Part shown: positions 1,173 through 61,401 of the stretch, one piece after another
How the letters are laid out: every line of letters begins with the position of its first letter
Position numbering within the stretch: position 1 is the first letter of the stretch
Source: an uncultured Candidatus Saccharibacteria bacterium
GTDB taxonomy: Bacteria; Patescibacteriota; Doudnabacteria; UBA920
Reading direction: 5' to 3'
Length of the DNA stretch: 64,000 bases
Assembly (NCBI GenBank): GCA_964490395.1
Contig: CAZBAS010000001.1
Location: 147,815-211,814 of the forward strand
The notes under the pieces: model-generated
What the model was told of the DNA's origin: nothing
The model's input: the letters and a program-made list of their open reading frames with translations, nothing else
Databases searched by the model: none
Program-made: the position numbers and the translations under genes

Positions 1173-1628
1173 ATGAAAGCGAAAATTACTAGAGTGCTTC
1201 CAGATGCAGAGTTGCCACAGTATCATACAAAAGAATCTGCAGGATTTGATATTGCGGCAGCTGAAGATGTAATCATAGAGCCTGGACAAGTGGTAAAGGT
1301 GCGTTCAGGTTTAATTATAGAGGCGCCAGAGGGGTATTTTTTAATGCTTACCTGTCGGAGCAGTCTTTCTTCTAAGAAGGGCCTGCACCTGGCGAATGGA
1401 GTTGGTACCATAGATCGCGACTTTAGTGGGCCAGAAGACGAGTTTAAAATAATTTTGCATAATTTTACCAACCAACCCGTAAAGGTAGCTAAAGGCGAGC
1501 GACTCGTGCAAGGAATATTTTTACCGGTAAATCAAGTAGCGTGGGAAGAAGTAGAGCAGATTCGCAATGAGAGTCGTGGCGGTATGGGGAGTACGGGTGG
1601 CTATGCAGAAGCAATTTCCAATGTCTAA
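1173..1628 (+). CDS. dut: dUTP diphosphatase (dUTPase)
   Basis: 151 aa. Motifs AGFDI, RSGL, GTIDRDFSG and a C-terminal RGGMGSTG are typical trimeric-dUTPase motifs. Confidence 0.85.
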   Translation: MKAKITRVLPDAELPQYHTKESAGFDIAAAEDVIIEPGQVVKVRSGLIIEAPEGYFLMLTCRSSLSSKKGLHLANGVGTIDRDFSGPEDEFKIILHNFTNQPVKVAKGERLVQGIFLPVNQVAWEEVEQIRNESRGGMGSTGGYAEAISNV

Positions 1629-1659
1629 TTTCTAATATCTAATGTTAGGAGAAAGAGAT

Positions 1660-2331
1660 ATGAAACAAAAAGGAAAACTCATTGTTATAGATGGAACAGA
1701 TGGTAGTGGGAAGGGCACGCAGGTTGCTCTTCTTTTGCAAAGGCTTAAGAAAGAAAAATATAAAACATATTTAGTTGACTTCCCTCAGTACGGAAAAAAA
1801 TCTGCTGGCGCTGTAGAGGAGCTGCTCAATGGAAAATACGGAATGCTAAACCCGTATGCGAGTTCTCTCCTGTATGCCGTAGACAGGCTTGATGCCTCAT
1901 TTGGTATACGCAAAGCCCTTGCTGAAGGAAAGGTGGTTATTGCTAACAGATACACAACAGCCAACGCAGGGCATCAGGGTGCGAAAATAGCAAGCAGGGG
2001 GGCGCGCAAGAAATTCTTCGCTTGGCTCGATGAGTTGGAGTTTAAGATTGTCGGGCTGCCGCGTCCCCATATGACCATTTTATTGCATGTACCATATAAA
2101 ATTGCTTACGGGCTCATTGGAAAGAAAGAAGCGAGGGGCTACCTAAAAGGTAAAAAGCGAGATATCGCGGAAAAAGATAAAAATCACTTACGGCGTGCAG
2201 AGGAAACATATTTAGAAATAGCAAAGACATTTCCGAAGGTGGCTATTGTAGAGTGTGTAGAGAAAAATGTGCTTTGCACACCTGAGCAAATCCACGAGCT
2301 TGTTTGGAAAAAAGTGAAGTCATTAATCTAA
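1660..2331 (+). CDS. tmk: thymidylate kinase
   Basis: P-loop GKLIVIDGTDGSGKGTQ at the N-terminus. The start was re-assigned to the ATG at 1660 (MKQKGK) with an AGGAGAAAGAG ribosome-binding site. The track's 1642 start lies inside the CTAAT repeat. Confidence 0.85.
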   Translation: MKQKGKLIVIDGTDGSGKGTQVALLLQRLKKEKYKTYLVDFPQYGKKSAGAVEELLNGKYGMLNPYASSLLYAVDRLDASFGIRKALAEGKVVIANRYTTANAGHQGAKIASRGARKKFFAWLDELEFKIVGLPRPHMTILLHVPYKIAYGLIGKKEARGYLKGKKRDIAEKDKNHLRRAEETYLEIAKTFPKVAIVECVEKNVLCTPEQIHELVWKKVKSLI

Positions 2332-2343
2332 GCAGAAACCCAT

Positions 2344-4014
2344 ATGTTCACTGACGAAGAAAAACAACTTTTGCAGAAGTATGTTACCTCAACCGAGAGC
2401 AATGTGTATGCGGTAAAAGGTATGGAGGGGATGGTCGGTGCAGCATATGCTCGGTACTCACGAGCGAAAGGTGGTTTCCGCGAAACTCTGCTCAAAGAGT
2501 TCATAAAGGAAGGGGCTGTGGACCCAGCACATGCTGAGCAGCTCATTGAACGAATTCTCATAGCCTATGGTGATGATAGTGTGGGCGAGCTGGAAGGCGC
2601 TCATGTAAGCTTTGAGAATATTTCCTGGGTTGCGGAAAAGTCCGTGGTGGACCACCGCATTGGGGGTGCATTCATAACTCAGTCTACGCGCTACGTGCTC
2701 TATGACGAAAAAGACGAACAGGGCCATTGGCTCTATTACCGCGGTCCTGAACTCACGGAATCCACATTCGGCGCGCAATATGTGGAAACCATGGACTTTT
2801 GTTTTGAAACCTATGCGAGTTTAGTTGGGCCGCTCAAGGCGCACCTGGAGAGCCAAAAACCAATCGAAGAAGCTGAATATGATATAAACGGCGATGGTAT
2901 TAAAGAGCGACTTGCAGATCTTACGGAAGAGCGACACATAAAAGATTTTAAACGTACATATACGTTTGACCTTCGCGCCAAGGCTTGTGATATTTTGCGC
3001 TACTTACTTCCGCTTTCTGCATTCGCAAATGTAGGTGTATACGGCAATGGGCGCTTTTTTCAGAACATGATTTCCAGCATGCTTACGAGTAGCTTGCCAG
3101 AAGATCGGAATATGGGTGTGGGTGCAGAAGCAGCGCTGAAACAAATTATTCCGGTATATGTACGCAGGGCAAAGCGGAATGAGTACGTTGCAAGTACTCA
3201 TGTTCGCATGCGGGAATTGGTGCGTACACTTAATCTTCCCACAGAAGAAAGAGTGGCTGAGCCAGAGTACTTACTGGCGGACTTTTCCGGGACAGTCGAA
3301 CTACTCGTTAATCATGGTAGGCCAGTTCGAGTTGCTATGGAACAAGCGCGAGACGTACAGACGCTCGCGCAAATGATATACCCATACGCGCAGTGCTCAC
3401 TGGAGCATATAATAGAGGTTGTATTAAAATTAGATATAAACGCTCGGACAACTATACAACAAACGTATATTGGTGAGCGTGCTACCAGAAGAGATAGGCC
3501 GGGCCGTGCACTAGAAGAAGGGTATCCGTATACATTTGATTTACTCACCGACTTTGGGGTATATAAAGACTTACAACGCCACCGCATGTCTACGCAGCAA
3601 AGGCAACTCTATACCGTACGGCATGGGTTCCTCATGCCCGAAGAATTAATAGCATTGGGCAAACAGGCAGAAGTGGAGGAGTGTATACGTCGCAGTGAAG
3701 CGTTGTTTGAAACTATGTACACGCAGAGTCCTGAGCTTGCTCAGTATGCAGTCTTGCATGGTCACTTAGTGCGCTGGACCATAGGTCTTAATGATCGTTC
3801 AGCAATGCATATGTTTGAACTCCGAAGTACGCCGCAGGGGCACCCGCACTATCGTAAGGCAGCGCAGGCAATGCACAAGCTCGTGTCGGAACGAAGCTCG
3901 TGGCGGGGTAGCGCAATGCAGTTTGTGGATCATAACGACTACTACTGGTCACGCGCGGACAGCGAAGCAAGGCAGCGGGTTAAAGAAGCTGCTCTGGAGA
4001 ACAGGAGTAAATAG
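2344..4014 (+). CDS. thyX: flavin-dependent thymidylate synthase ThyX, tandem-duplicated long form
   Basis: 556 aa, about twice the canonical ThyX length. The C-terminal half carries the canonical RHRMSTQQRQ (RHRx7S) signature. The N-terminal half carries a degenerate DHRIGGAFITQSTRY copy. Confidence 0.7.
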   Translation: MFTDEEKQLLQKYVTSTESNVYAVKGMEGMVGAAYARYSRAKGGFRETLLKEFIKEGAVDPAHAEQLIERILIAYGDDSVGELEGAHVSFENISWVAEKSVVDHRIGGAFITQSTRYVLYDEKDEQGHWLYYRGPELTESTFGAQYVETMDFCFETYASLVGPLKAHLESQKPIEEAEYDINGDGIKERLADLTEERHIKDFKRTYTFDLRAKACDILRYLLPLSAFANVGVYGNGRFFQNMISSMLTSSLPEDRNMGVGAEAALKQIIPVYVRRAKRNEYVASTHVRMRELVRTLNLPTEERVAEPEYLLADFSGTVELLVNHGRPVRVAMEQARDVQTLAQMIYPYAQCSLEHIIEVVLKLDINARTTIQQTYIGERATRRDRPGRALEEGYPYTFDLLTDFGVYKDLQRHRMSTQQRQLYTVRHGFLMPEELIALGKQAEVEECIRRSEALFETMYTQSPELAQYAVLHGHLVRWTIGLNDRSAMHMFELRSTPQGHPHYRKAAQAMHKLVSERSSWRGSAMQFVDHNDYYWSRADSEARQRVKEAALENRSK

Positions 4015-4118
4015 TTGTAGGTGTGTGGCGGCGAGTTTGGTCTAACGGTGATGGTTGTATGGCCCTAATACCTAAAACTTCATACCATACTGGCCGCTCC
4101 AAACATTTAACCACCATT

Positions 4119-4670
4119 ATGAAAGTAACTGAAATAATTTCATATGAAGTAAAACGGTATAAGCGCGCAAAGCATGTGCGTATTTCAGTGAAACCTGGTG
4201 GTAGGGTGGTGGTTACTCTGCCGTGGCGCGCGCCAAAATATTTGGCAGACGAGTTTGTACAAAAGCAAATGGCCTGGATAGCGAAGGCCAGAGAAAAGAT
4301 GGTCCAGGTGGAGCCAGTAAAACGCTCGGGAACTACGGAGGAGTATAAAAAATATAAAAAAGAAGCGTTAAAAGTTTTTACCCAGCGGTTGGCAGAGATA
4401 AATACGTACTATCAATTCTCATACGCACGCGTTTCTGTGCGTAACCAAAAAACCCGTTGGGGGAGTTGTTCTAAAACGGGTACACTCAGTTTTAGCTATC
4501 GGTTATTACTACTGCCACAAGCAGTGCGCGACTACGTGCTTGTGCATGAACTCTGCCATACAAAAGAAATGAACCATTCAAAAAAGTTTTGGGCGCTGGT
4601 GGGGCAAACTATCCCAGACTATAAACAACTTAGACGGCAACTGCAAACGTATAGCAATGTGCCCATCTAA
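4119..4670 (+). CDS. YgjP/DUF45-like (M48/WLM-type) zinc metallohydrolase
   Basis: HELCHTKEMNHS HExxH-type motif near the C-terminus. Start re-assigned to the ATG at 4119 (MKVTEIIS). The track start at 4023 is GTG. Confidence 0.6.
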   Translation: MKVTEIISYEVKRYKRAKHVRISVKPGGRVVVTLPWRAPKYLADEFVQKQMAWIAKAREKMVQVEPVKRSGTTEEYKKYKKEALKVFTQRLAEINTYYQFSYARVSVRNQKTRWGSCSKTGTLSFSYRLLLLPQAVRDYVLVHELCHTKEMNHSKKFWALVGQTIPDYKQLRRQLQTYSNVPI

Positions 4671-4727
4671 AGATAGACCCCTAGAGCATCTGTTGCCTGG
4701 TGGGTCTATTTTTGTCATCATGTGTAC

Positions 4728-5666
4728 ATGAATCTCTTACTTACGCTATTTTTCGCAATGTGGCCGCTGTATATCTTGGTTTTGTTAGGGGTGGTGGCTA
4801 AGCGGTTTCTCGCAGTTGAGTCCAAGTCCATTGCATCCTTGGTTGTGTATATACTTGCTCCCATAATTACGTTTCATGCTGTTGCAACGACACCGTTGAC
4901 CGTTGGTGCACTTTCCTTGCCAGTAGTCATGCTTGCCATTGCGCTTATAAGTTCGGCCCTGTTTTTTGCAGTAGGAGCTTGGGCATTTGGGAAAGGGAGC
5001 AGTCGGCAGTATTTACTGGCAGCTACCGCAGGAAGTAGCAATGCAGGCTATTTTGGTCTTGGCCTTGCGCTAGTACTGTTTCCAAAAGACCAGGTTAATT
5101 TAGTTATTCTTTCTATACTTGGTTCCATAGTGTTTCTCCATACATTTGGATTTTATCTGACTGCGCGCGGTAAGTTTACTGCCAAAGAGTCTTTCCATAG
5201 ACTGCTGCGTTTGCCAGTTATATACGCCTTTCTCCTTGGCTTGCTCGTTCATGCCGTACCTGTTTCATTTGGTCCTCACTACCTGGAAGTTATGAGTTGG
5301 TTCCGCGGGTCGTATACTGTACTTGGCATGATGATAGTCGGCTTGAGTGTTGCGACTATAGGGGGAGAGGTGTTCGATAAAAGATTTACCGCACTTTCTC
5401 TTGTGGCAAAGTTTCTGCTTTGGCCTTTGTTGGCCCTAGGGGTGCTGTGCGTGAATAGATACTATGTTCACTGGTACAACGCGCAGGCACAAGAAGTGAT
5501 ATGGCTTCTCTCCATAGTTCCCATAGCCACCAACACCGTCACGTATGCTAACCTACTAGAAATACATTCGGACGTGTCTGCCGTAAGTGTGCTCGTAAGT
5601 ACCATGCTTGCGCTGGCGTATATTCCGCTTATGTGGCCCGTAGTGCATTTGTTTGCTACCCGATAG
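4728..5666 (+). CDS. AEC-family (auxin efflux carrier-like) membrane transporter
   Basis: About 310 aa, roughly 10 predicted TM helices, with the composition and length of the AEC/malate-permease family. ATG at 4728 follows the track's GTG at 4722. Confidence 0.45.
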   Translation: MNLLLTLFFAMWPLYILVLLGVVAKRFLAVESKSIASLVVYILAPIITFHAVATTPLTVGALSLPVVMLAIALISSALFFAVGAWAFGKGSSRQYLLAATAGSSNAGYFGLGLALVLFPKDQVNLVILSILGSIVFLHTFGFYLTARGKFTAKESFHRLLRLPVIYAFLLGLLVHAVPVSFGPHYLEVMSWFRGSYTVLGMMIVGLSVATIGGEVFDKRFTALSLVAKFLLWPLLALGVLCVNRYYVHWYNAQAQEVIWLLSIVPIATNTVTYANLLEIHSDVSAVSVLVSTMLALAYIPLMWPVVHLFATR

Positions 5667-5722
5667 TATGCCAATTTAAAAAACCATTCCGTTACGCGGA
5701 ATGGTTTTTTATAATGGAGGGT

Positions 5723-6223
5723 TTATGCTTGCGGTTTGCTGTCTTCACCGCGCCAGGCTTCGGCAGTGCCTATGTCGTGGCGACCGGACGCTTTTATATA
5801 GAGGAAGAATTGCATGCGGTATGCTGCCATATTCTTTAGAACATTGTCTATGAGCAACACACCTTTTGGCTGCGCGTGGCCGCTGCCCCACATGTCGAAC
5901 TCTTTTGCTATGTCGGAGTCACTCAGAGATGCGAGTAAATCTTGAATCTTTTTTCCCTCTGCATCCATGCGCTCGGCGAAGTTCTCTGCGGTAGTTTCTG
6001 CAGCGTATGCTCCAGAATTGGACAGCACTTCTCGGTTCTCCGTAACAATGAGCTCTAACAATGTGCCGCCAATATGAGACAGATACTGCATAAGTTCCAG
6101 CAGGGAACGTTGTTTTTCTGTAGGGCGATAGTCCAATGTGCCGGGGAGTATCTTGGTTGCTAAATGTTTTATTACCTTCACTTCATGAAGAAGGCTCTGT
6201 TCGTACTGTTGCTTCGTTATCAT
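5723..6223 (-). CDS. hypothetical protein, DinB/YfiT-like helical bundle (degenerate)
   Basis: 166 aa. The C-terminal segment NMAAYRMQFFLYIKASG parallels the HHRGQ region of the DinB-family protein at 17692, but the His residues are missing. Confidence 0.3.
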   Translation of the reverse strand: MITKQQYEQSLLHEVKVIKHLATKILPGTLDYRPTEKQRSLLELMQYLSHIGGTLLELIVTENREVLSNSGAYAAETTAENFAERMDAEGKKIQDLLASLSDSDIAKEFDMWGSGHAQPKGVLLIDNVLKNMAAYRMQFFLYIKASGRHDIGTAEAWRGEDSKPQA

Positions 6224-6610
6224 GGGGCTATGTTATTACTGATATTGCCTGAATATCTTACCAAATGCTTCTTCATGTGCGCAAATGCTTCATATATTTT
6301 TCACCACTTTTTTATAAAATAACCAGGTAGGATGTGAAAGGACTCATATGCATACACAAAGCCAAGAGCAACTTTCTTGACTGGATATCCGCTCAGAATC
6401 TACTACCCACAAACAACCGTGGGAGAAATGGATTAAGAGCGAGGAGGGTAACATAAAAGAACAACCCGAGCCGCACTATTGGTGGGAAGACATGAATTAA
6501 CTCTAGTGTGGAAAATAACAAGTACGTATAAAGCCGCCCGCACAGGCGGCTTTTCTGCTCTCTGGGTTAGCGTGGTACACTATGAATGCATTTTGTTTTA
6601 ACCAAAATAC

Positions 6611-6988
6611 ATGCTGCGTATATATATACGAAAATTTGAATCACGCGTACACTTGCTCCAGCAGCATAACTACAAATGGCGACCATTCAAACGCGCCCAT
6701 AAAGAACTCGTAGGAAAGACGTACCCGGACGAGATTGTTATACAGTGGAACGCAAAGTTAAAACTCCTGGTAGCGGCAGCTGCGTGTACAACCTTACTAT
6801 TTGGTGTTGGCATTGTGTATATTACCTGGTTCGTAAAAGGAGGGCGTACAGGTCTGATAATGCTTGCTTTGTTTATAGTAACTGCTCCTGCGTTATTTGT
6901 AGACGCTTTGGGGCTGGGTCTTTTGCTCTCGTTTCCTTTTCGCTGGGCGAGGCGGCGGGCTAAAAGGCGGGAAAATACCCAAATTTAG
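6611..6988 (+). CDS. hypothetical small membrane protein
   Basis: 125 aa with two hydrophobic segments. It is preceded by an intrinsic terminator-like hairpin at 6531-6556. Confidence 0.35.
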   Translation: MLRIYIRKFESRVHLLQQHNYKWRPFKRAHKELVGKTYPDEIVIQWNAKLKLLVAAAACTTLLFGVGIVYITWFVKGGRTGLIMLALFIVTAPALFVDALGLGLLLSFPFRWARRRAKRRENTQI

Positions 6989-7095
6989 GATTGGGAGACA
7001 CTTGATTTTTATAGCTATTTGTTGTAATATACGTAAGCAAATTGAATATTCGCTCCAACTTCCTTGTATATAAAAGCATAAATATTTTTCTTGGG

Positions 7096-7170: not shown

Positions 7171-7197
7171 AGAAAAATATTTATTCTTGCACCATCC

Positions 7198-10279: not shown

Positions 10280-10314
10280 AAGCCACTTCACGTATATACG
10301 TGAAGTGGCTTTTG
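10280..10314. terminator. bidirectional Rho-independent terminator
   Basis: AAGCCACTTCACG-TATATA-CGTGAAGTGGCTT, a 13-bp stem flanked by A/T, lying between convergent genes. Confidence 0.7.
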
Positions 10315-10346
10315 ATTGTATCCGTACCTAATGAATACATAAATAT

Positions 10347-11075
10347 TTATGTATCTATACCTTGCTCTTCAAATTCTTTTATAACCTGCTTAACGCCAAA
10401 TATCCAATTGGGGCTACCGGGCTGCACATAGAGACCAATAAACTTTTCTGGGGGTACGTCTTTATAACGTTTTTCGAGAAGCGCATCAAAATCTTTTACC
10501 CATTCAGCGTAGCTATTGTATTTGCGTAGGTTCGGAGGCGTACCGCCAATGCCACTGCAGTTGTAGTAGTAGCAATGTTGTCCATACGTGCTTTCTACAA
10601 ATGATATAGCCACCATCATGCGCATATTTTTAGATTCGACAAATGCATCCAGGGTTGCATCTTCCTGGGCAAAGGGTGAGTGCTTGCTTTCTAAATAGGC
10701 TTTGAGTTTTGCTTTGCGGATTGTTTTTTGGTCCACTGGAACTTCCGCAACCTCTCTATTTTCTTTTACAAACCTGGTGAATACAGGAGAAGTAATATCT
10801 ATAACTTGTTGTGAAAATACGCGAATCCCTTCCTCAGTCGTTGCTTCGGCCGCAGCATACAGCTCGCTGTTGGCAATGGGCTCGGAGAGTCGTAGGACAA
10901 ACATAACACCACTGGCAAAAGACAATACAACCAAACAGAGCATGGCGAGCACAGCTCGTTCCGCAAACCATGCTATGGTAGTCGAGTACCCATAGGGTAT
11001 ACCCGTAGCTTCAATGAGTCTGGTAACAAGCTTGGTTCCTTTTTTTATTTTTCGTTTTGTTTTTGGATGAAGCAC
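10347..11075 (-). CDS. membrane-anchored GH73-like (glucosaminidase/FlgJ-like) peptidoglycan hydrolase-like protein
   Basis: N-terminal TM. MVAISFVESTYGQ...YYNCSGIG...EWVKDFDALLEKRYK parallels GH73 LESGWG...NLFGIK...FxDYxxLL. Paralog of 38847..39668. GTG start at 11075 is tentative. Confidence 0.45.
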   Translation of the reverse strand: MLHPKTKRKIKKGTKLVTRLIEATGIPYGYSTTIAWFAERAVLAMLCLVVLSFASGVMFVLRLSEPIANSELYAAAEATTEEGIRVFSQQVIDITSPVFTRFVKENREVAEVPVDQKTIRKAKLKAYLESKHSPFAQEDATLDAFVESKNMRMMVAISFVESTYGQHCYYYNCSGIGGTPPNLRKYNSYAEWVKDFDALLEKRYKDVPPEKFIGLYVQPGSPNWIFGVKQVIKEFEEQGIDT

Positions 11076-11165: not shown

Positions 11166-12560
11166 GTGTTAAGCAGAAACAAAACGCGTTTGTCTACTGA
11201 ATCAGAACAAGTTAAAAAATATAGCATCGCCTTACTCATCCTACTCATTGCTTTTGGGTGCGTGTTTGGTATGGTGTACCTACTCATGCAGCGCCGTATG
11301 CATGCTCCGAGCTTTTCTGCGAGTGAGCAAGTAAAACGCATATATACAGTAACGTATACCGACAGCGGGTACAGCCCGAGTTCGTTAGAAGTACCGCTTG
11401 GGGCAACAGTAGTATTCCAAAACGATTCTACCATGCCCATGTGGACGGCATCTGATCCCCACCCGACTCACACCGATTATGCAGAGTTCGACTCCCACGC
11501 AAATACTCTACCTGGTGAATCGTACTCTTTTATCTTTGCCAAGAGCGGTACATTTGGCTACCACAACCACGCACGATCAATTCATAGAGGTATCGTACGA
11601 GTGCTCAGCAAGTCGCAGCTACCAAGCATAGACAAGACCGTAGAGGGGAAGCGCGCAGTGCGGGATGGATATATGAGCCAGTTTGTACCGGGCGATCCAA
11701 GTTCTATTTACGCTGTTATGGACGCTATAGAGGCGAACAGTGCTTTAGCGCGGGATTGTCATGACATGGCGCACGATCTTGGTCATCGTGCCTATGAGCT
11801 GTATGGTTTTTCCGGTGCCATGACGTTTGGTGATCCAAATAGACTGAGCAATACATCCACGGACGACATTTGCGCAGGCGGTTACATGCACGGCATTCTG
11901 GAAGAGCTGTTCCTGCACCAGCCAGAGCTTAAGGATGCGCCTGGGAGTGTGTGCGCGGGTGTGCCCTACATAAACCGCGGCAGCTGTTTTCATGGGGTAG
12001 GTCATGGCCTTATGTTTGCAAACAAGCGTGATGTCCCAGCATCGCTTGCAACCTGTAAGGGTCTTGCACATAGGGAAGATGCGCACCGCTGCTACGAAGG
12101 GGTGTGGATGGAAATGTTCTGGGGAAATGTAGAGCATGCAGGTAGTAACTCACTTGGGTGGACTCTAGAAGACCCGCTTGCTCCTTGTAAGCATGCAGGC
12201 CTAGAAGAAAAACCCGCGTGCTTCCTCTATGCCCACCTCGGGTACCTGCGGACACACAAGGCAGACTACGCAGGAATGGTAGCGCTATGCACTACAAACA
12301 ACCTTGAGAAAAAAGACGAGCAATTTTGCCTGAAAGGTGTTGGTATAACCATGATGAAGCACTTTAGTAGTCATCGCCTAGAAAATACTGAGTCTCTGGT
12401 GGCTGGTCTAGACCATGACAGTAAATACGCGTACTATCAAGGAGTAATTGGCTACTCCAGACTCTCTGCGGTAAGCGAACCAGACCTCCATACTTTTTGT
12501 ACTTGGCTCAAAACCGACCGCGTCATATGCGAAGACGTCCTGCGAAATGGTACGGATTAA
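11166..12560 (+). CDS. membrane-anchored protein with a His-rich beta-sandwich (cupredoxin-like) domain and a 6x Cys/His repeat domain
   Basis: 464 aa. TM near the N-terminus. TVVFQNDSTMPMWTASDPHPTH...GTFGYHNHARSIHRGIV, then six roughly 40-aa-spaced motifs C-x2-G-x2-H/M-G (CAGGYMHG, CFHGVGHG, CYEGVWME, CFLYAHLG, CLKGVGIT and others). GTG start. Confidence 0.45.
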   Translation: MLSRNKTRLSTESEQVKKYSIALLILLIAFGCVFGMVYLLMQRRMHAPSFSASEQVKRIYTVTYTDSGYSPSSLEVPLGATVVFQNDSTMPMWTASDPHPTHTDYAEFDSHANTLPGESYSFIFAKSGTFGYHNHARSIHRGIVRVLSKSQLPSIDKTVEGKRAVRDGYMSQFVPGDPSSIYAVMDAIEANSALARDCHDMAHDLGHRAYELYGFSGAMTFGDPNRLSNTSTDDICAGGYMHGILEELFLHQPELKDAPGSVCAGVPYINRGSCFHGVGHGLMFANKRDVPASLATCKGLAHREDAHRCYEGVWMEMFWGNVEHAGSNSLGWTLEDPLAPCKHAGLEEKPACFLYAHLGYLRTHKADYAGMVALCTTNNLEKKDEQFCLKGVGITMMKHFSSHRLENTESLVAGLDHDSKYAYYQGVIGYSRLSAVSEPDLHTFCTWLKTDRVICEDVLRNGTD

Positions 12561-12574
12561 GCACGTAAAACAAT

Positions 12575-31037: not shown

Positions 31038-31058
31038 AGAATGAGTAATAATAGAAAT

Positions 31059-31141
31059 GCCTAATACCTAATTTCTAATGTGTGATGAAAGACGGGAGAA
31101 TATTCCGGACATTAGATATTAGGAATTGGAAATTAGACATT
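31059..31141. repeat. family-A palindromic element (CTAAT heptads), copy A2
   Basis: GCCTAATACCTAATTTCTAATG, a 30-nt spacer containing GAATATTC, then ATTAGATATTAGGAATTGGAAATTAGACATT. Upstream of zwf. Confidence 0.7.
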
Positions 31142-31154
31142 GTGTCTTTAACAC

Positions 31155-32933: not shown

Positions 32934-33059
32934 CATGAAAACATATAAGCATACAAACATGTAAACAAAAAGCATGTAAACATATAAACATGGCTCCCGA
33001 AGAGGCTCTGCCTTTTGTTTAAATGCTTACATGCTTGCATGTTTGTATATCCTGCTTCA
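32934..33059. promoter_or_regulatory. large imperfect inverted repeat in the pgl/glgP divergent intergenic region (candidate operator)
   Basis: The left arm ATACAAACATGTAAACAAAAAGCATGTAAACAT pairs with the right arm ATGCTTACATGCTTGCATGTTTGTAT. Both are built from CATGTAAAC-type motifs. Confidence 0.45.
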
Positions 33060-47342: not shown

Positions 47343-47700
47343 CTATATGCACAAAGACCCCCTGATGTGTGCGCAGGGGGTCTTTGCTATCTATCAGATT
47401 TTGCAGGTCGAACATCTACTGGTCCATTGCTGCATCGGTGCTGCTGGTGCTATCGTCACGGCGACCATGGCGATCGTTTTGTCCGCCAGTTGTGTTGGCC
47501 TGTTTGCTGTTGTCGTTGTTATCGCGTGCCATATGCGTATCTCCTATATTTCTGGCCCGTGTGTGGGCGAGAAATAATTTAATAGACACTAGTACTATAC
47601 TGCTCGCGCCTGATAAAAAGATTAGGAAGATATGTATGGGCGTACGTAAGTAAGCATAAAAATATTATTCCGGCCATGGGCATAAGCAATAATAGGAGTA

Positions 47701-47775
47701 TAATTTCCGATTACCAATATCTAATTTCTAATGAAATGTCCAATGCAGAATATCGGATCATTGGAAATTATTTCC
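47701..47775. repeat. family-A palindromic element, copy A3
   Basis: TAATTTCCGATTACCAATATCTAATTTCTAATG, then a spacer, then CATTGGAAATTATTTCC. Lies at the 3' end of rlmI. Confidence 0.6.
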
Positions 47776-47779: not shown

Positions 47780-48961
47780 CTACTCTACATAAAGTAAAAG
47801 ACTCTTTAAATAATCACCTTCAGGAAAAAATAGATTAACAGGGTGGTCAACTGCCAGGAGGTGGTTACTAAGTATTTTTATCTTTCGGTTTGCGTCTTTT
47901 GCTGCCTGGAATACAATGGTTTGAAATGTTTGTACGTCTATGTGCTGTGAACACGAAGAGGTGAGAAGAAGGCCTCCCGCAGGAAGGTGCTGCATAGCCA
48001 TACGGTTTATTTCTCTATATCCTCTTGTGGCGTTAGGTATGTCGCTTGCGCGTTTCGCAAATGCGGGGGGGTCAAGAATTATAAAGTCATAGGTGTGGGG
48101 TAATGTTTGACGGCTTAAAAAGCGGAACACATCTTCGCAATAGAACGCGCTGTTTTTCGCGCTGAAACCGTTGAGTGTTATATTCTCTTGTGCTGCTGCA
48201 ATAGCATCTGGGTCAAGGTCTAGGGTGTCGGCTCGCTTTGCCTTACCAGATAATGCATACGCACTAAAGCCCCCTGTGTACCCAAAACAGTTGAGCAGTG
48301 TTTTACCTTTTGAGAAATTTTTTACCAGTTGACGCATTTCTCTTTGGTCTAAAAAAAAGCCAGTTTTTTGACCCTTAGAAAAATATACTTTGAATGCAAT
48401 GCCGTGTTCCAGTACTTCTATAGGTTCGGTGGCTTTGCCGTGAATCCAGGCCGACACATCTTCAAGCCCCTCTTTTCTCCGTGTGGGGCTGTTAGATTTT
48501 TCGTATATTGCTTTTGGTTTTATTTCTGCAATAAGAATTTCAAGAACCATGGGCTTTAACTTTTCCATGCCCAGCGTGTTTATTTGAACAACAAGCACTT
48601 TCCCATATTGGTCTACTATGAGTCCGGGCAGGTTATCGCCCTCACCGTTTATAAGTCTATACGCTGTTGTATCGGCGGGGGCATACTGTTTTCTCAGAGT
48701 TAATGCACTGAGAATGCTTTCCCGAATGCTTTCGAGCGGATCCTGCTCGCTAAAACTAACCATGCGCCCCATGATTGACTGTCCTTTGTTAAAATACGCA
48801 TACCCAATGAACTGACCATATGCAGTGTGCACGGGAAGAATGTCGCCATTTTCAAATTCCGGGGTGCTGCCTACTGCTCCCATGAATATCCAGGGGTGTC
48901 TATTGCGTGCGTGCACTTCGCGTCCTGGTTTAAGAACTACTGCTTTTTGCTGGGTATCCAT
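47780..48961 (-). CDS. rlmI: 23S rRNA (cytosine-C5) methyltransferase RlmI-like (PUA + class I methyltransferase)
   Basis: N-terminal VVLKPGREVHARNRHPWIFMGAV. Methyltransferase motifs LLNCFGYTGGFS and ILDPPAFAK. Confidence 0.75.
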   Translation of the reverse strand: MDTQQKAVVLKPGREVHARNRHPWIFMGAVGSTPEFENGDILPVHTAYGQFIGYAYFNKGQSIMGRMVSFSEQDPLESIRESILSALTLRKQYAPADTTAYRLINGEGDNLPGLIVDQYGKVLVVQINTLGMEKLKPMVLEILIAEIKPKAIYEKSNSPTRRKEGLEDVSAWIHGKATEPIEVLEHGIAFKVYFSKGQKTGFFLDQREMRQLVKNFSKGKTLLNCFGYTGGFSAYALSGKAKRADTLDLDPDAIAAAQENITLNGFSAKNSAFYCEDVFRFLSRQTLPHTYDFIILDPPAFAKRASDIPNATRGYREINRMAMQHLPAGGLLLTSSCSQHIDVQTFQTIVFQAAKDANRKIKILSNHLLAVDHPVNLFFPEGDYLKSLLLYVE

Positions 48962-49659: not shown

Positions 49660-49750
49660 ACTATGTAGTATACGTTAATGGGTTGAAATATGTATGAGGC
49701 CACATATTTGACAAAAAATAGTTATGGGTATATATTCATAATATAGAGGA

Positions 49751-49806
49751 AATTCCTAATTCCTAATTCCTAATTCCTAATTCCTAATTCCTAATTCCTA
49801 ATTCCC
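49751..49806. repeat. (TAATTCC)x8 heptanucleotide microsatellite abutting the start codon of the DUF134 gene
   Basis: Directly visible as aattcctaattcct...attccc followed immediately by ATG at 49807. Confidence 0.9.
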
Positions 49807-50088
49807 ATGACCAGACCACAGTGTGACAAAAAAATAGGATATTGTCCTTCTTGGAAAGGCTTTAAGCCATTTGGTGGTAAGTCTTCCGGGGCAGGTGTGG
49901 TGGAAATAACCAAAGCGGAAGTGGAAAGTCTTCGGCTAAAGAACATAGAAGAGCTGGATCAAACACACGCAGCAGAACAAATGGGCATTTCGCAAAGTAC
50001 ATTTCAGCGTCTCCTTGCCAGTAGCTACAAAAAAGTTTCAGAAGCGCTGGTAGAGGGGAAAGAGCTGGTAATTGTAGAAGACAAATAG
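49807..50088 (+). CDS. DUF134/UPF0251 predicted DNA-binding protein
   Basis: C..P..FKP.G...(V)EITKAEVESLRLKNIEELDQTHAAEQMGISQSTFQRLL...ALVEGKELVI closely follows the UPF0251 consensus. Confidence 0.65.
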   Translation: MTRPQCDKKIGYCPSWKGFKPFGGKSSGAGVVEITKAEVESLRLKNIEELDQTHAAEQMGISQSTFQRLLASSYKKVSEALVEGKELVIVEDK

Positions 50089-51178: not shown

Positions 51179-51282
51179 GGTAGGCTCCTTTCTTTAGTCC
51201 GACGTAACGCCGGACCCCTCCGTTAATTTATGCACCCAAGTGTTCCGGCCTTTCGGCCGCTGGAACGGCGGGTGGCCTGCAA

Positions 51283-51310
51283 GTATAACGCTATAGTTGA
51301 CAGGTGTCAA
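51283..51310 (-). promoter_or_regulatory. near-consensus sigma-70 promoter (TTGACA-17-TATACT) on the minus strand
   Basis: Minus-strand TTGACAcctgtcaactatagcgtTATACT, with a 28-bp GC palindrome immediately upstream (51313-51340). Confidence 0.55.
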
Positions 51311-51343
51311 GGCCCCCGCCTATTATGAATAGGCGGGGGGAAT

Positions 51344-51426
51344 GTCTAATTCCTAATATCTAATTTCTAATGTCTCGGGCACTCTATAGTTTTTTATTTA
51401 GGCATTAGAAATTGGAAATTAGATAT
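51344..51426. repeat. family-A palindromic element, copy A5
   Basis: GTCTAATTCCTAATATCTAATTTCTAATG, a 30-nt spacer, then CATTAGAAATTGGAAATTAGATAT. Upstream of trxB. Confidence 0.7.
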
Positions 51427-51469
51427 TTTTAATACACTGAACTTAGCTGTACTAATTTAGAATGATTTT

Positions 51470-56361: not shown

Positions 56362-56435
56362 GTAGAAAGTTCATAAAGTACATAAAGTCCGTAAAGTAAT
56401 ACTTTATGAACTTTCTACTTTATGACTTTATAAAC
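56361..56435. repeat. family-B palindromic element (TAAAGT units), copy B1
   Basis: AGTAGAAAGTTCATAAAGTACATAAAGTCCGTAAAGTAAT|ACTTTATGAACTTTCTACTTTATGACTTTATAAAC. Fills the trxB2-purF intergenic region. Confidence 0.7.
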
Positions 56436-56439
56436 CTGT

Positions 56440-57858
56440 ATGGAGTTAAACGAAAAGTGCGCGGTATTTGGAATATATGGTAGGGATATAGACGTGGCGA
56501 GGCTTACCTTTTTTGGGTTGTATTCGTTGCAGCATCGTGGCCAAGAAAGTTCGGGTATAGCAGTGAGTGACGGAAGCGAACTGTATTGCTACAAAAACAA
56601 TGGGCTTGTTGCGCACGTGTACGACGAAGTACATATTCGTGCTCTGAAGGGCCATATAAGCGTGGGGCACAATCGCTACTCTACTTCGGCTGGTAGCGGC
56701 TTGCATCATGCGCAGCCCATTCTTACAGCTGGAAATAAAGTTGCAGTAGCGCACAATGGTAATTTGCCCAGCGTGGTTGCGTTGCTCGCATTTTTGAAGA
56801 GCGTGGAAAGAAACACCGAAGGGAAATCTGACTCTGCACTGATAGCGGATGCAGTAGGGTATTACGTTGAGCAGGGCATGGCTCTTGCAGAAGCGGTTGA
56901 AAAAGTATTTCCTCTCATGACCGGTGCGTTTTCCCTGCTATTTATGGACGCACAAACGCTGGTTGCGGTGCGAGACGGCTTTGGTATTCGCCCGTTGTGC
57001 CTTGGCCAAATAGGGGAAGCGCATGTAGTTTCGTCTGAGACCTGCGCGCTCGATGCCATTGGTGCTACCTATGTGAACGATGTTGCGCCAGGAGAGCTCG
57101 TTGCCATTAACGCCAGCGGTCTTACCAGAAAACAGCTCGTGGCCCCCGACCAAAAAATGGATATATTTGAATATATCTATTTTGCGCGCCCCGATAGTAT
57201 GTTGCTGGGGCAATCTGTATATGAGGTGCGATGCAGGTTTGGTAAACAGCTGGCAGCAGAGTATCCCGTTGATGCAGATATAGTAGTGCCTGTTCCAGAA
57301 ACTGCAAACCCCATGGCTATAGGGTATGCGCGCGAGTCTGGCCTGCCGTTTGAAATGGGTCTCATTAAAAACAGGTATGTGCATCGAACGTTCATTGAGC
57401 CCGACCAGCATATACGTGACCTCGGCGTTAAGATGAAACTGAATCCACTCCCGTCCGTGCTGAAAGGTAGGCGCGTGATTGTGGTTGATGATTCCATTGT
57501 TCGTGGTACTACGTCGCGGCAAATAGTACGCATGTTATTCTCGGCTGGTGCTACAGAAGTTCACTTTTTGGTTAGTTCGCCGCCCGTGCGATTTCCAGAT
57601 TTTTACGGCATAGACTTAGCGAGTCAATCGCAGATGCTGGCGTTCCGAAAGTCGGTAGAAGATATGCGTGTGTTTTTAGGCGCTACTTCCCTTGGGTTTT
57701 TGTCTTACGAAGGCATGATTGCTGCTACAGGGGTCCCTGAGTCGAGCTTGTGTACCTCCGTATTTACCGGGCACTATCCTTTGCCTATTCACGAACGAGA
57801 AGCGGATGTGTCACATACGGTGTTGCCAGACGCAGATGCATCGCGAGTAATTGTATAG
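56440..57858 (+). CDS. purF: amidophosphoribosyltransferase
   Basis: N-terminal nucleophile context EKCAVFGIYG. GHNRYSTSAG. PRTase motif VIVVDDSIVRGTT. Confidence 0.85.
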   Translation: MELNEKCAVFGIYGRDIDVARLTFFGLYSLQHRGQESSGIAVSDGSELYCYKNNGLVAHVYDEVHIRALKGHISVGHNRYSTSAGSGLHHAQPILTAGNKVAVAHNGNLPSVVALLAFLKSVERNTEGKSDSALIADAVGYYVEQGMALAEAVEKVFPLMTGAFSLLFMDAQTLVAVRDGFGIRPLCLGQIGEAHVVSSETCALDAIGATYVNDVAPGELVAINASGLTRKQLVAPDQKMDIFEYIYFARPDSMLLGQSVYEVRCRFGKQLAAEYPVDADIVVPVPETANPMAIGYARESGLPFEMGLIKNRYVHRTFIEPDQHIRDLGVKMKLNPLPSVLKGRRVIVVDDSIVRGTTSRQIVRMLFSAGATEVHFLVSSPPVRFPDFYGIDLASQSQMLAFRKSVEDMRVFLGATSLGFLSYEGMIAATGVPESSLCTSVFTGHYPLPIHEREADVSHTVLPDADASRVIV

Positions 57859-57929
57859 CCAAAAGCTTCAATTTTTCATCGCGACAAGGCTTTGCGAAGA
57901 GGCAACCTAAAGTTTGTATATAGGACACG

Positions 57930-58856
57930 TTGGATTGCCGCGTCGGATGCAAGGCCAATCTGATAAAGATAAAAGTTTTCTCATATTTTTACTTTTTCCT
58001 CATGCACAATTTCTTTCTTACCATAATTTTTTGGATAGATCGGTTCCTCCAGCTGCTTGGTTTAAGACGACAGCGGCAGCTTGGGGTTATTTACGATAGT
58101 GTTACCAAGCAGCCCATAGACCCAGTTGTGGTGAAACTTATAGATGTGCATACATCCAAAGTTATTGCTTCGAATATTGCCAACATGCAAGGCGAGTATG
58201 GGTTCATGGCAGACCCGGGTTTGTACCAAATATATGTGCAGCGCCCGCACTATGCATTTCCCTCTACGCGCATACAAAGTTTACGTGATGGCGTGTACTA
58301 CCCCGTGTACCATGGAGAAAATTTTGAGTTCGTCGGTGGTAAGGACGTTATTTCCATGAGTATACCGCTGGACCCCATTGCGGCTGACTGGAACCAAGAA
58401 GCCAAAAAAGCCACCATGCCTGTGCATCCAGTGCTCCAATATGCCATTAGTGTAATACTGCGAATATTGTTTTGGTCTGCATTGCTACTCACTGTTATAA
58501 CATTCCTCGCAACAAGGGCTGACCTATGGGTGTATGTGCTCGGTGCGTATGTTTTGGTTATTTTGCTCGCGCTTATTACTCCTCGTGTGCGCTTGTGGGG
58601 GAGGGTGCGCGTTAAAAAAGGCGGGCTACCTGTTGTGGGCGCAAGTGTAGAAGTGTCTCATGCAAAACTCCCCGGAGTTATAATAGCCAAAGCAGTAACC
58701 GTAACAGATGGTAAGTTTTTTATCCGCATTGGCCGAGGCTCATATACCGTAACGGTAAAAGTGCCTCCACTTAAAGACGGGCCTCCCGCACCGCCCATAG
58801 AATTCAGCATCCACGCTGGCTCAACTGGCGTTTTAAACCGGGAATTTTATATATGA
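57930..58856 (+). CDS. membrane protein with two carboxypeptidase-regulatory-like beta domains
   Basis: GVIYDSVTKQPIDPVVVKL... and GRVRVKKGGLPVVGASVEV...TDGKFFI are separated by 2 TMs. The start may be the internal ATG at 58002 (MHNFF). Confidence 0.4.
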   Translation: MDCRVGCKANLIKIKVFSYFYFFLMHNFFLTIIFWIDRFLQLLGLRRQRQLGVIYDSVTKQPIDPVVVKLIDVHTSKVIASNIANMQGEYGFMADPGLYQIYVQRPHYAFPSTRIQSLRDGVYYPVYHGENFEFVGGKDVISMSIPLDPIAADWNQEAKKATMPVHPVLQYAISVILRILFWSALLLTVITFLATRADLWVYVLGAYVLVILLALITPRVRLWGRVRVKKGGLPVVGASVEVSHAKLPGVIIAKAVTVTDGKFFIRIGRGSYTVTVKVPPLKDGPPAPPIEFSIHAGSTGVLNREFYI

Positions 58857-59192
58857 TCCCTCATCCTCAAACCCCTCTCGGGCAGCCTTATAGCCTTTAC
58901 AAGTTGGCTAAAACATGGTATTATAAGCGGTCCCAAATGGACCAAAAACAAAACTTGCACCACTGCAAGTTTTTAGTTTGTACTTTTACATATAAACGGG
59001 GGAGTTATTTTAGAGAGGTTAGTGTATGAATTTTGGACTTACCAGCAACGCGAAAAGTATTACAAAAGTTTGTGGAATATTTTTTGCGTTGTTGGTTTGT
59101 GCGTAATAAAAAATGTGCTGCGAGCAGTGCATCAATAAATACGCGTTTTGCATTTCCATTGAGCGCTCGTAAGGCGCTGTAACTCGGAGGGT

Positions 59193-59978
59193 GTGATGGC
59201 ATTTGCTCTTTGTTGTCTGAGAACGGCCGTTGCTGTTCTCGCGTTGTTTGCGTGCGTGTTTTCTTGCGCGCTGGCGCAACAGCAAAACCCAGCTATTCAG
59301 CTTGGCGTTGCCGTGGCTGATGGCAATGGTAACGCGACCGTTGCCGTGGGCCTGCAGTCCTCGGGCCAGGTGGCCGGGTATGGATTAAGCGTTTCTTATG
59401 ATTCCACTGAATTGGAATTTGTAAAAGCGAGCAATAACACGCAGAATTTGAGCTGTAATTTTAATTCTGCACGGCTTGGTGTTGTGGGCGTTGCCTGTGC
59501 GTTTCTTGGCTTGCCAACTTTTCCGACGGGTTATGTTGAGCCCGTAAGTCTGGTCTTTCAGACAAAGAAAAAGGGTGGTGTCTTTGTGCTGGGCACCGGA
59601 GACTTTCCAGTGCAGCAGCAAATAAGCGACTCGCGTGCGCGCGAGTTATACGCCAAGTTTGACGGCGGGTTTATTCTCGCACACCAGCCAACGGCGTACG
59701 TCAGCGCCCATCTACCCTCCAGCAACTCTACCACTCCGGTGGCGTATGTGTTTGCTGGCGGCTTACGAGATGCTGACTACGCCGAGGTCTGGGTAGATAA
59801 TAACTATGGAAGTTACATCATAGATATTATTTACCCTGGGCATGGTGATAGTCGGTCCGCATTTATAGCGCCCGGGCAAGTCAGCAGAATTCGCGTTGTG
59901 CCCGTTGTGCGGGGCCGTCGCTTAAACACGGTGGCAACAGTTTTCGTTGTCACCAGTATGCCGTTTGGCATACAATAA
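59193..59978 (+). CDS. secreted hypothetical protein (high-GC gene)
   Basis: Signal peptide AVAVLALFACVFSCALAQQ. Roughly 57% GC, well above the surrounding sequence. Confidence 0.4.
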   Translation: MMAFALCCLRTAVAVLALFACVFSCALAQQQNPAIQLGVAVADGNGNATVAVGLQSSGQVAGYGLSVSYDSTELEFVKASNNTQNLSCNFNSARLGVVGVACAFLGLPTFPTGYVEPVSLVFQTKKKGGVFVLGTGDFPVQQQISDSRARELYAKFDGGFILAHQPTAYVSAHLPSSNSTTPVAYVFAGGLRDADYAEVWVDNNYGSYIIDIIYPGHGDSRSAFIAPGQVSRIRVVPVVRGRRLNTVATVFVVTSMPFGIQ

Positions 59979-60416
59979 ACTTCTCTTCCTAAGACGCGGC
60001 AGGCTGGTACTTACTACAGTTTGCCGCGTCTTTTCGTTTGGGTACTTTTGATAATGAATTCGCACTTTTATCATGTTTAAGCCATGTCTAGCTATTTACA
60101 ATATACTCATTATATTGTATAATAGTAAAGTTGCGTAAATAGCAACAGAAACAAAAACTTGTTGGGAAACCTCTCAAGTTTTTTTATTTGTTCTTTTCAA
60201 TATTTAGGGGGATTTATTTTAGAGAAGGTTATTTTTAATTGTTTCATTGTTTTTGGTTTTATGGTACTACGAGAAGTAGGAAGAGCGCGGATAATATTAC
60301 CCGCTTTATTTCTACCTCTCGTATACCACTTACGGCGCAATTGGTGCGTTCGTGTAGTGGTAGGTAACAAACTTAGCAGTCCAACCCGTCCGCGGTGGAA
60401 AGCCCGGACAAGGAGT

Positions 60417-61247
60417 ATGCAGACAATGAAAAAGTATCCGACATTTCCCAAGCTTGCAGCACTCTGCTGCGCAATCGCCATGGCCGTGATCACGCTCTGT
60501 TCAGCCACCACAGCCCAAACCCGTAAACCTGTCGAAACCATTATTGGTCAACTGAACGCGGACCCGACCACTGCCCTGAGTCTGGTTCATGCAGTGAGTG
60601 GAAATGACGAGTTTGGTGTCTACATGGCACCGACATTCAGTACGTGGTTGAACGATGGGCTCAACAGTTATGGGGTTCGTTTTTTGAAGTCCTACGCAAA
60701 GCCGGCACGTTTGCAAATCGTTCAGTACAAGCTGGACTACGATGGCAGATTCATTCCCCTTGGTCAGTTGAATATCAAAGCAGATTTGAGCGGCGGGCTC
60801 AAAGAGCGCAAAATCGAAGACATCGCGCAGGCGTTCATGAACCCTCGTACAAACGGGGGAACGCCGATAATGTCCGTTTTCTTTCTCAGTGCTGAGGAGG
60901 GTGGTATTCTTGACGCCGCTATAATTTATCAGTATCACAGGCAAACTTACACCATGGCCGGAGATTTTTTTACGGACTATAGCGTGAAAGGTTTGTCTGT
61001 GAGCTTTGCTGGGCGCTTTACTCCCAACACAGCGTGGCGCTATGCGGTCATTACGAGTAATGGTGACGTAATTGATTCGGGCGACGCGGCCATGGTTAGC
61101 GGACCAGACGGTATTGGTATAAAGGTCAACATTCGGCCCGACCGTCTTTACGCCGATTTCATGGCTGTCTCAATCGTGCTTACTAACCGTAATACGGCGC
61201 AGGTTTTGTTTGCGCCGGACGTAACCGTCATTGGTCAGACTCGCTAG
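60417..61247 (+). CDS. secreted hypothetical protein (high-GC gene)
   Basis: Start re-assigned to the ATG at 60417 (AAGGAG ribosome-binding site). Signal peptide LAALCCAIAMAVITLCSATTAQT. Confidence 0.4.
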   Translation: MQTMKKYPTFPKLAALCCAIAMAVITLCSATTAQTRKPVETIIGQLNADPTTALSLVHAVSGNDEFGVYMAPTFSTWLNDGLNSYGVRFLKSYAKPARLQIVQYKLDYDGRFIPLGQLNIKADLSGGLKERKIEDIAQAFMNPRTNGGTPIMSVFFLSAEEGGILDAAIIYQYHRQTYTMAGDFFTDYSVKGLSVSFAGRFTPNTAWRYAVITSNGDVIDSGDAAMVSGPDGIGIKVNIRPDRLYADFMAVSIVLTNRNTAQVLFAPDVTVIGQTR

Positions 61248-61359
61248 TCTGGCCGCCTGAATAACCTTCCCTCACCCTAGGGCGTGGATAGCTATCTTTA
61301 TGGAGTTAAACACTTCGTAACACTAGCAATCCACGCCCTTTGTATTTTTATATTTTTAA

Positions 61360-61401
61360 TTATTAGAATTCTACTCACAATTGTGAGTAGAATTCTAATA
61401 A
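61360..61401. repeat. perfect 42-bp palindrome containing ATTAGAA/TTCTAAT heptads
   Basis: TTATTAGAATTCTACTCACAA|TTGTGAGTAGAATTCTAATAA. Confidence 0.85.

Follow-up and report, generated by a model that had tools for sequence, protein, structure and literature searches.

Short tandemly repeated repetitive (STRR) sequences, the heptanucleotide repeats of cyanobacteria, consist of a 7-nt unit, form intergenic arrays and often abut start or stop codons; CTAATGA arrays of this kind are carried by Nostoc, Microcoleus and Tychonema. We know of no reader or function for the heptanucleotide repeats of bacteria, and the question of why bacteria accumulate them has stood since the cyanobacterial STRR sequences were described. 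Eight GAC(C/T)AAT units, which belong to the CTAATGA type, are located upstream of recO in Nostoc PCC 7120 (bioRxiv 10.1101/2022.06.06.494920), and TAACTGA repeats occur in Beggiatoaceae, Cyanobacteria and Bacteroidetes (PMC4679880). In this study, a 64 kb stretch of DNA (hereafter the window) from a Doudnabacteria-like genome of the candidate phyla radiation (CPR) was analysed for a family of intergenic elements built from heptads with the core CTAAT. These CTAAT elements are a variant of the known STRR-type repeats, in a hairpin form for which no description was found. With roughly even confidence, we regard the family as a dispersed, non-coding, fast-turnover repeat of CPR (Patescibacteria) chromosomes, comparable to repetitive extragenic palindromic (REP) sequences and miniature inverted-repeat transposable elements (MITEs). 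The CPR copies add to the standing question five of seven positions kept in strict phase, defined ends with a covarying centre, and movement or replacement between 98% identical strains; together, these facts make the question testable.

One window locus, a (TAATTCC)8 leader, is of the STRR kind. Most CPR copies differ from STRR sequences in being imperfect repeats, in which five of seven positions are fixed and two are free, and in consisting of two inverted arrays with a unique centre and AAT...ATT ends, found as whole elements at unrelated loci. The initial annotation had not recognised the unit as a described element. This holds for the hairpin form and for the occurrence in CPR bacteria, since heptad-armed palindromes in these bacteria were not found described in the literature outside subscription-only sources and nothing relevant was found in the literature on CPR terminators or palindromic repeats, but tandem heptanucleotide repeats have long been known. 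The REP sequences of Proteobacteria, together with bacterial interspersed mosaic elements (BIMEs) and REP doublets forming hairpins (REPINs), are likewise short imperfect palindromes that are strictly intergenic and often placed just past stop codons and between cistrons; they share many copies, conserved arms, a variable centre, lineage specificity, fast turnover and tolerance in operons. However, REP arms are a fixed 20-35-nt sequence with a 5' GTAG, whereas CTAAT-family arms are arrays of a 7-nt unit, and the family has a lower density, non-complementary outer arm positions and no REP-associated tyrosine transposase (RAYT) seen. MITEs, such as Nezha in cyanobacteria and Correia in Neisseria, are similarly small and non-coding, with terminal inverted repeats and presence/absence polymorphism, and one metagenome subfamily of CTAAT elements resembles them in having near-identical copies between non-homologous genes, unlike the window's five copies, whose loops are unrelated. 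The CTAAT family differs from MITEs in lacking a clear target-site duplication or a cognate transposase, in the differing window loops and in the internal periodicity of its inverted repeats. The omega repressor of plasmid pSM19035 binds contiguous 7-bp WATCACW heptads, both direct and inverted, and its sites lie at a few plasmid promoters, which they control. These operator/centromere arrays resemble the CTAAT elements in being built of adjoining 7-bp units, direct as well as inverted, that share a conserved core; in contrast, the CTAAT elements are chromosomal, dispersed, situated beside 3' ends and without a regulon.

Real heptads were present at five of the six sites named in the initial annotation. 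Its count of at least six copies thus falls to five, as the sixth site (61360-61401) is a heptad-free palindrome that is described further below. The five members are as follows.

1613..1643, plus strand: solo direct array of 4-5 units, AAT-TT-CCAAT-GT-CTAAT-TT-CTAAT-AT-CTAAT; inverted arm absent.
31056..31141, no strand assigned: hairpin type; 3 CTAAT units in the left arm and 4 inverted ones (ATTAG/ATTGG) in the right arm, separated by a spacer of 31 nt.
47701..47775, no strand assigned: degenerate hairpin-type element, CCAAT-AT-CTAAT-TT-CTAAT, junction GAAATGTCCAATG, then ATTGGAAATTAT; inner CCAAT units.
49751..49806, plus strand: perfect tandem array, (TAATTCC)x7.9 by Tandem Repeats Finder (TRF), 100% identity.
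51341..51427, no strand assigned: hairpin type; 4 CTAAT units in the left arm and 4 inverted ones in the right arm, separated by a spacer of 25 nt, then ATATTTTTAA.

The unique spacer of 25-30 nt and the length of roughly 80 bp that had been proposed are right for the two clean hairpins. The pattern CTAATNNCTAAT gave 15 matches in the window against 0.20 expected, a number reached in 0 of 100 shuffles, and the two-armed pattern CTAATNNCTAAT-N10-40-ATTRGNNATTRG gave 6 matches at 2 loci against 0 expected. CTAAT was the sole 5-mer of the window enriched in excess self-matches at periods 7 and 14. When AAT/ATT was anchored in 7-nt phase, 11 clusters were obtained compared with 1.4 in shuffles; the five known loci were recovered, and no family locus beyond these five was detected in the window by this search. 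A chain search tolerating one mismatch per core returned direct arrays at 1618-1643 (4 units), 47714-47732 and 49756-49802 (7 exact units), as well as two-armed loci at 31061-31079 with an inverted arm at 31111-31136 and at 51346-51371 with an inverted arm at 51397-51422. TRF reported period 7 at 1613-1643, 49751-49805, 51341-51375 and 51404-51427.

The setting of the five copies is an ordinary chromosome, and the adjoining genes are dut, tmk, zwf, a gnd-like gene, an ion channel gene, a PUA/SAM methyltransferase gene, a DUF1232 gene, a DUF134 gene, a LUD-domain gene and trxB. The nearest named relatives of the window trxB belong to Candidatus Doudnabacteria (74-83% identity), and those of zwf are likewise Patescibacteria. 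The stop codon of dut (TAA, 1626-1628) falls within the second heptad of the first array, and the tmk start (1660), preceded by AGGAG, follows downstream. On the minus strand, the gnd-like gene stops (31155) 13 nt before the second element, and zwf starts (31037) 18 nt after it. The degenerate element, the junction GAAATGTCCAATG of which was found again in metagenome copies, ends 4 nt from the stop (47780-47782) of the minus-strand PUA/SAM methyltransferase gene. The perfect tandem array spans the gap from a promoter-like site (TTGACA-17-TATATT, 49708-49736) to the ATG of the DUF134 gene (49807-50088), and its RNA is predicted to be unstructured. The last element lies 43 nt upstream of the trxB start (51470), directly past a promoter-like site at 51297-51326.

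Beyond the window, the two-armed design (3-5 heptads, 15-45 nt, 3-5 inverted heptads) was scanned for, and at least 120 loci were found in metagenome contigs, many of them from 0.1-um groundwater fractions; the contigs carry no taxonomic assignment. No match to the two-armed form was obtained in the 2.9 million viral contigs of IMG/VR, and carriage by phages was rejected on this ground. Exact tandem CTAATNN x4 arrays behaved differently: at least 119 stretches were found in GTDB representative genomes, in phyla that include Cyanobacteria (mostly CTAATGA), Bacteroidota, Planctomycetota, Acidobacteriota, Chloroflexota and Patescibacteria, and at least 120 viral contigs in IMG/VR, including metagenome-assembled genomes (MAGs) of giant viruses, carried them. 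Tandem arrays so common across phyla and viruses therefore represent a generic simple-sequence class and are not diagnostic of family membership. Among the matches listed, the strict two-armed pattern (gap of at most 60 nt) occurred at 4 of the at least 119 tandem-seeded genome loci, namely, in a Saccharibacteria MAG (L100), in an unclassified MAG (L051) and in two cyanobacteria with TG/GG spacers. The Saccharibacteria copy, located just upstream of ruvC, aligns with the full trxB element at 76% identity. Copies thus exist elsewhere and share a clear consensus, rather than being restricted to the window without a family consensus, as the initial annotation had considered.

Family statistics were derived from the 120 metagenome copies listed. 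The search pattern forces three exact left cores, and conservation was consequently estimated from unforced positions only; the surrounding genes are simple open reading frame (ORF) calls with approximate start codons. Clustering of whole elements by BLAST failed with the periodic arms linking everything, and clustering by loops and flanks worked. The layout of the element is AAT-NN-(CTAAT-NN)n ... (NN-ATTAG)n-NN-ATT, with a length of 60-110 nt and inverted heptad arrays at both ends. In the unit just outside the three forced units, AAT is in phase in 92-95% of the listed copies (118-120), whereas conservation drops to about 40% for C and T, and the information content of the spacer (NN) positions is about 0.1 bit. 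Near-identical units were found only in the array at 49751-49806; the other window copies and the 118-120 metagenome copies are free at the two spacer positions. The listed copies contain no GTAG tetranucleotide in their arms. Since AAT/CTAAT is kept in strict 7-nt phase while the spacer bases drift, a sequence-specific constraint is indicated. Either a factor that mobilises or binds the elements may impose it, or the unit as such, which supplies stops in all frames and on both strands.

The genomic position of the copies is narrowly defined. None of the 120 listed copies lies within an ORF. Of the gene pairs flanking a copy, 69 are co-directional, 15 convergent and 4 divergent, and within 200 nt of the listed copies 111 gene ends and 59 gene starts were found. 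The placement both upstream and downstream of genes that had been reported for the window is correct, but the wider family is much nearer to stop than to start codons, with median distances of 11 nt (nearest stop) and 97 nt (nearest start) over the 120 listed copies. Among the abutting genes, 23 of 117 terminate on a heptad TAA, in the first to third heptad (distances -4, -11 and -18), an expected outcome, given that three heptads contain TAA (or TAG on the opposite strand) in each reading frame. As the elements supply stop codons to neighbouring genes, they are relevant to gene calling in CPR genomes. The neighbours share no function: the 111 upstream genes fall into 155 Pfam families and the 59 downstream genes into 60, with no Pfam enrichment, and no enrichment of transposases was seen in these surveys. 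A regulon or transcription-factor operator was thus rejected, given functionally unrelated neighbours and sites lost or replaced in relatives at 83-98% identity. The same facts, together with the loss of a site in the 98% relative and a position at stop codons rather than promoters, speak against the regulator-site alternative offered by the initial annotation.

Comparison with close relatives revealed rapid gain, loss and replacement. The trxB element is kept in position and sequence, with few substitutions, in the 92% relative L122 (9878-9953), and it is absent from the 83% relative L125, where the site is empty. The element at 47701-47775 is missing from the orthologous site in L122. In the gnd-zwf spacer, the window (31038-31154) and a relative with a 98% identical zwf (L250, 9594-9731) carry unrelated sequences of about 100 nt between the same flanks, the gnd stop on one side and ATTTCTATTATT on the other, and the difference looks like a cassette-type replacement of intergenic DNA. 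This spacer measures 34-37 nt in two 83% relatives, and no CTAAT chains were found in the 21 kb of each gnd-zwf relative (L250 and the 83% pair). The orthologous DUF134 leader array in L122 and L124 consists of about five TAACTCC units compared with (TAATTCC)8 in the window; every unit is altered at one position and the copy number differs, which indicates concerted unit change and slippage. In the 97% relative, at least three independent Logan assemblies (L127-L129) end 50 nt upstream of trxB in degenerate AATT-phased sequence, and the elements break CPR short-read assemblies. Copies also recur at unrelated loci. Two copies 900 bp apart in L158 have near-identical arms, including irregular CGAAT units, and different centres, and L161, L172 and L176/L222 share about 100 nt, arms and centre, although blastp detected no similarity between the flanking proteins. 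TA borders both ends of the element in L222/L176, a single end in L161 and L172, and no end of the window copies; the AT-rich flanks weaken this evidence. Genes lying between paired copies are ordinary, a ribulose-phosphate epimerase gene in L149 and a gene for a protein without a Pfam match in L158.

The reading of the family as a REP/MITE-like dispersed repeat agrees better with the data than either a regulatory site or a dedicated RNA structure, because the copies are always intergenic, follow stop codons, are strand-symmetric, have neighbours without a common function and are gained and lost between near-identical strains. It is further favoured because whole units occur at unrelated loci and slippage demonstrably reshapes arrays. 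The initial description of dispersed intergenic imperfect palindromes of REP/MITE type is upheld by the absence of copies from ORFs, the presence/absence polymorphism in relatives and the recurrence between non-homologous genes. Under this reading, an element would consist of a short central palindrome between two inverted arrays of 3-5 heptads. Replication slippage would lengthen, shorten and homogenise the arrays, a step demonstrated for the solo array, and whole elements would be copied to, or replaced at, new intergenic sites, an outcome that is demonstrated and for which transposition and recombination are candidate mechanisms. The elements would then persist where they are least harmful, that is, a few bases past a stop codon, and a gene running into an element would be closed at once, three heptads giving TAA/TAG in all three frames. 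The elements probably act as AT-rich DNA or mRNA hairpins between cistrons or at 3' ends, and they are probably modulators or stabilisers at most, neither strong terminators nor sites of a specific regulon.

Several observations weigh against the dispersed-repeat reading. Target-site duplications are not evident in the window, and the TA on both sides in one metagenome locus pair is suggestive only. The genes scanned yielded no transposase, no RAYT and no other mobilising gene; in the window, none of the 28 proteins scanned was a RAYT (Y1 HUH transposase). The five window copies share arms and not loops, unlike a young MITE family, and the density is modest, with 5 copies per 64 kb and elsewhere usually one per 10-14 kb contig. 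The specific 5-nt core is kept across CPR classes, beyond what slippage or structure alone would give. Finally, several hairpins, including those of the parallel families described below, occupy positionally conserved spacers in the rpsF-ssb-rpsR-efp cluster. The repeat-family view does not account for this positional conservation, which hints at a selected function over pure selfishness.

A possible though unlikely explanation is that the elements are factor-independent terminators or RNA hairpins at 3' ends or between cistrons, with selection acting on the RNA stem-loop and the heptads being incidental. The location right after stop codons, shared with intrinsic terminators, and the excess of convergent over divergent sites (15 vs 4) agree with this explanation, as do the stable predicted folds: the family mean is about -27.5 kcal/mol, and within the window (z = -5 to -6.6) the minimum free energy (MFE) reaches -31.7 kcal/mol (z -6.6) at 31056-31141 and -30.2 kcal/mol (z -5.3) at 51341-51427. 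In both clean window hairpins, the plus strand gives the better fold because ATTGG pairs with CTAAT via G-U. However, in 85 copies abutting a single 3' end, the sense fold was the better one in 36 and the antisense fold in 49 (p = 0.13); there is no sense bias, and the plus-strand advantage in the window is therefore not general. Orientation markers (junction motif, unit counts, CCAAT vs ATTGG) also showed no bias relative to transcription. Pairing of the arms was compared by permutation and in mirror and shifted registers, and the outer units gave a negative result each time. In a 40-sequence alignment, pairing in mirror register equalled that of column shuffles (83.6% vs 83.5% paired; covariation 0.091 vs 0.085), and the outer spacer positions formed a standard pair in just 13-17 of the 40 sequences, which is not above chance. 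Complementarity exceeded chance at the innermost spacer position and the three bases beside the innermost cores (P = 0.002, 0.003, 0.002 and 0.017). As only these innermost stem positions covary, which by itself would suit an RNA hairpin, the real palindrome is central and the outer arrays are inverted, not complementary; the spacer by itself is no more structured than shuffled sequence. A T-run behind the element, or an A-run ahead of it, is present in about a quarter of the copies, in the style of bidirectional terminators with an A-run upstream and a T-run downstream, and TTTTT follows the trxB copy, but at least 6 T within 8 nt downstream were found in only 26 of 113 copies, such that about 77% have no T-run and the family fails the U-tract and strand bias of intrinsic terminators. 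The stems are AT-rich, with unpaired spacer positions. Several copies are located inside operon-like spacers, some metagenome copies abutting the genes of ribosomal proteins S7, L14 and S11, and the gnd-zwf copy stands close to the next start. Moreover, structure alone leaves the conserved CTAAT core unexplained, and the site is not conserved in the 98% relative.

It is doubtful that the heptads are periodic sites for a heptad-reading protein, either an omega-like (ribbon-helix-helix) protein on DNA, serving as a nucleoid, roadblock or partition factor, or a HutP/TRAP-like ring on RNA. Ring proteins of the HutP/TRAP type read RNA triplets at fixed spacing, and the right arm of the element offers UAG-N4-UAG-N4-UAG. 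A conserved core and AAT phase with free spacer bases is the signature of a contact motif, and the inverted outer arms with non-complementary spacer bases, the strand symmetry of the elements, the existence of solo direct arrays and the presence of one core in different CPR classes all point the same way. However, no regulon signal was seen, the copies are at gene 3' ends rather than promoters, and close relatives do not conserve them. Many readers would be needed, since the same small genome carries three or more further iterated-motif families and relatives have still different motifs at these sites. The RNA version predicts a strand bias, which is absent, and no candidate protein was identified.

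It is quite improbable that the elements are purely neutral simple-sequence repeats generated by polymerase slippage, with the inverted arrays and the family resemblance being coincidental. Heptanucleotide repeats are reported to be the most abundant class of long simple-sequence repeats in prokaryotes (Mrazek 2007, as cited in PMC4679880), tandem CTAATNN x4 is common in many phyla and in viral contigs, and the DUF134 leader array is a classic simple-sequence repeat. By contrast, slippage decay should strike all seven positions alike, whereas variation is confined to the two spacer positions. The hairpin form, with its defined AAT...ATT ends and covarying centre, occurs as whole copies at unrelated loci and is absent from the viral contigs in which tandem arrays are common.

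It is very improbable that the elements encode small RNAs or form structured 5' leaders, with a promoter immediately ahead of them and an action in cis on the following gene or in trans. Three of the five window copies begin 10-15 nt past near-consensus promoter-like sites (49708-49736 and 51297-51326, with 11/12 matches each, and 47677-47704, with 10/12), but only about 5 of 220 element sides among the listed copies have a promoter-like site of at least 10/12 within 30 nt, and no strand bias exists. The promoter association was accordingly dropped as a feature of the window that is not general in the family. Rfam 15 at the gathering threshold returned a tRNA only from the window, and at E <= 1 the elements gave chance-level matches only, far under gathering scores; the copies are also not conserved in close relatives. 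Guide arrays of CRISPR (clustered regularly interspaced short palindromic repeats) or TIGR (tandem interspaced guide RNA) type have a negligible probability, because although TIGR-Tas systems are frequent in CPR bacteria, some with hairpin-type arrays, the TIGR arrays are long runs of 36-nt units beside a Nop-domain gene (PMC12045711), and this reading is contradicted by the anatomy of single, dispersed copies with 7-nt periodic arms and no spacer series, as the initial annotation had argued for CRISPR, with no Nop-domain (Tas) or cas gene among the Pfam-scanned genes flanking the window or metagenome copies.

The region directly ahead of the trxB element (51282-51340) contains the palindrome TTGACAGGTGTCAA, which is the shared -35 hexamer of two divergent promoter-like sites (11/12 matches each). 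A GC-rich hairpin, GGCCCCCGCC...GGCGGGGG, comes next, and conservation in the 92% relative L122 extends over this entire region.

The sixth site named in the initial annotation has a different anatomy.

61356..61405, no strand assigned: perfect palindrome outside the family, with 23-bp arms and a 4-nt loop; no heptad periodicity.

It is located between the convergent genes 60159-61247 (plus strand) and efp (62062-62619, minus strand), has an MFE of -30.1 kcal/mol (z -10) and AT-rich flanks, and looks like a bidirectional terminator or an operator outside the heptad family. Within 61360-61401, one ATTAG and one CTAAT occur, in the order opposite to that of the family.

Three further hairpin families with arms of iterated short motifs were found in the window.

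62625-62690 and 62945-63010: GTCAGTW x3, short loop, ACTGACY x3; the two copies are about 85-90% alike by eye.
56364-56432 and 63508-63575: AAAGT/ACTTT repeated every 7-9 nt; the two copies are reverse complements of each other.
32934-33050: GC-rich centre with arms of iterated AAACATRT/AAGCAT; located between pgl and the glucan phosphorylase gene.

The GTCAGTW hairpins flank rpsR (62697-62936, minus strand), and their ends are 14-16 nt ahead of the efp and rpsR starts. The neighbouring genes of the two AAAGT/ACTTT copies are also reversed, such that the orientation to transcription is constant, unlike in the CTAAT family. The 98% relative L250 carries the AAACATRT arms with altered units; L252 and L253, both 83% relatives, lack them. 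In the 83% relative L125, long hairpins with arms of iterated TACGAA/TTCGTA (10292-10400 and 11191-11297; -42 and -39 kcal/mol) occupy the S18-EFP and S6-SSB spacers, whose window orthologues also hold hairpins. In L127, the 97% relative, one spacer was read (upstream of efp, 10362-10477), and it has a different, ATACGAAT-type motif. Hairpins with differing motifs at orthologous spacers indicate that the position is conserved and the motif is lineage-specific. One may envisage a hitherto undescribed CPR system of intergenic hairpins with iterated 5-6-nt motifs at 7-9-nt phase, some of them in the positionally conserved spacers of the rpsF-ssb-rpsR-efp cluster. Several loci of one genome would share a motif that changes between close lineages (CTAAT, GTCAGT, AAAGT and AACAT in the window, TACGAA in the 83% relative), and the hairpins would be read by a heptad reader or formed by hairpin-homing mobile elements; we give such a system a low probability. 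Two candidates would agree with the concerted evolution of the motif and with the strictly phased AAT and defined termini of the CTAAT elements: a protein that reads heptads and binds or mobilises the arrays, or mobile elements that replace hairpins by homing to existing intercistronic ones.

Several genes preceded by an element, namely, the DUF134 gene (49807-50088), zwf (31037), trxB (51470), purF (56440), efp (62619) and rpsR (62936), show no recognisable Shine-Dalgarno sequence in the interval from element to start codon. The GTCAGTW/ACTGACY unit resembles the TAACTGA repeats described in Beggiatoaceae.

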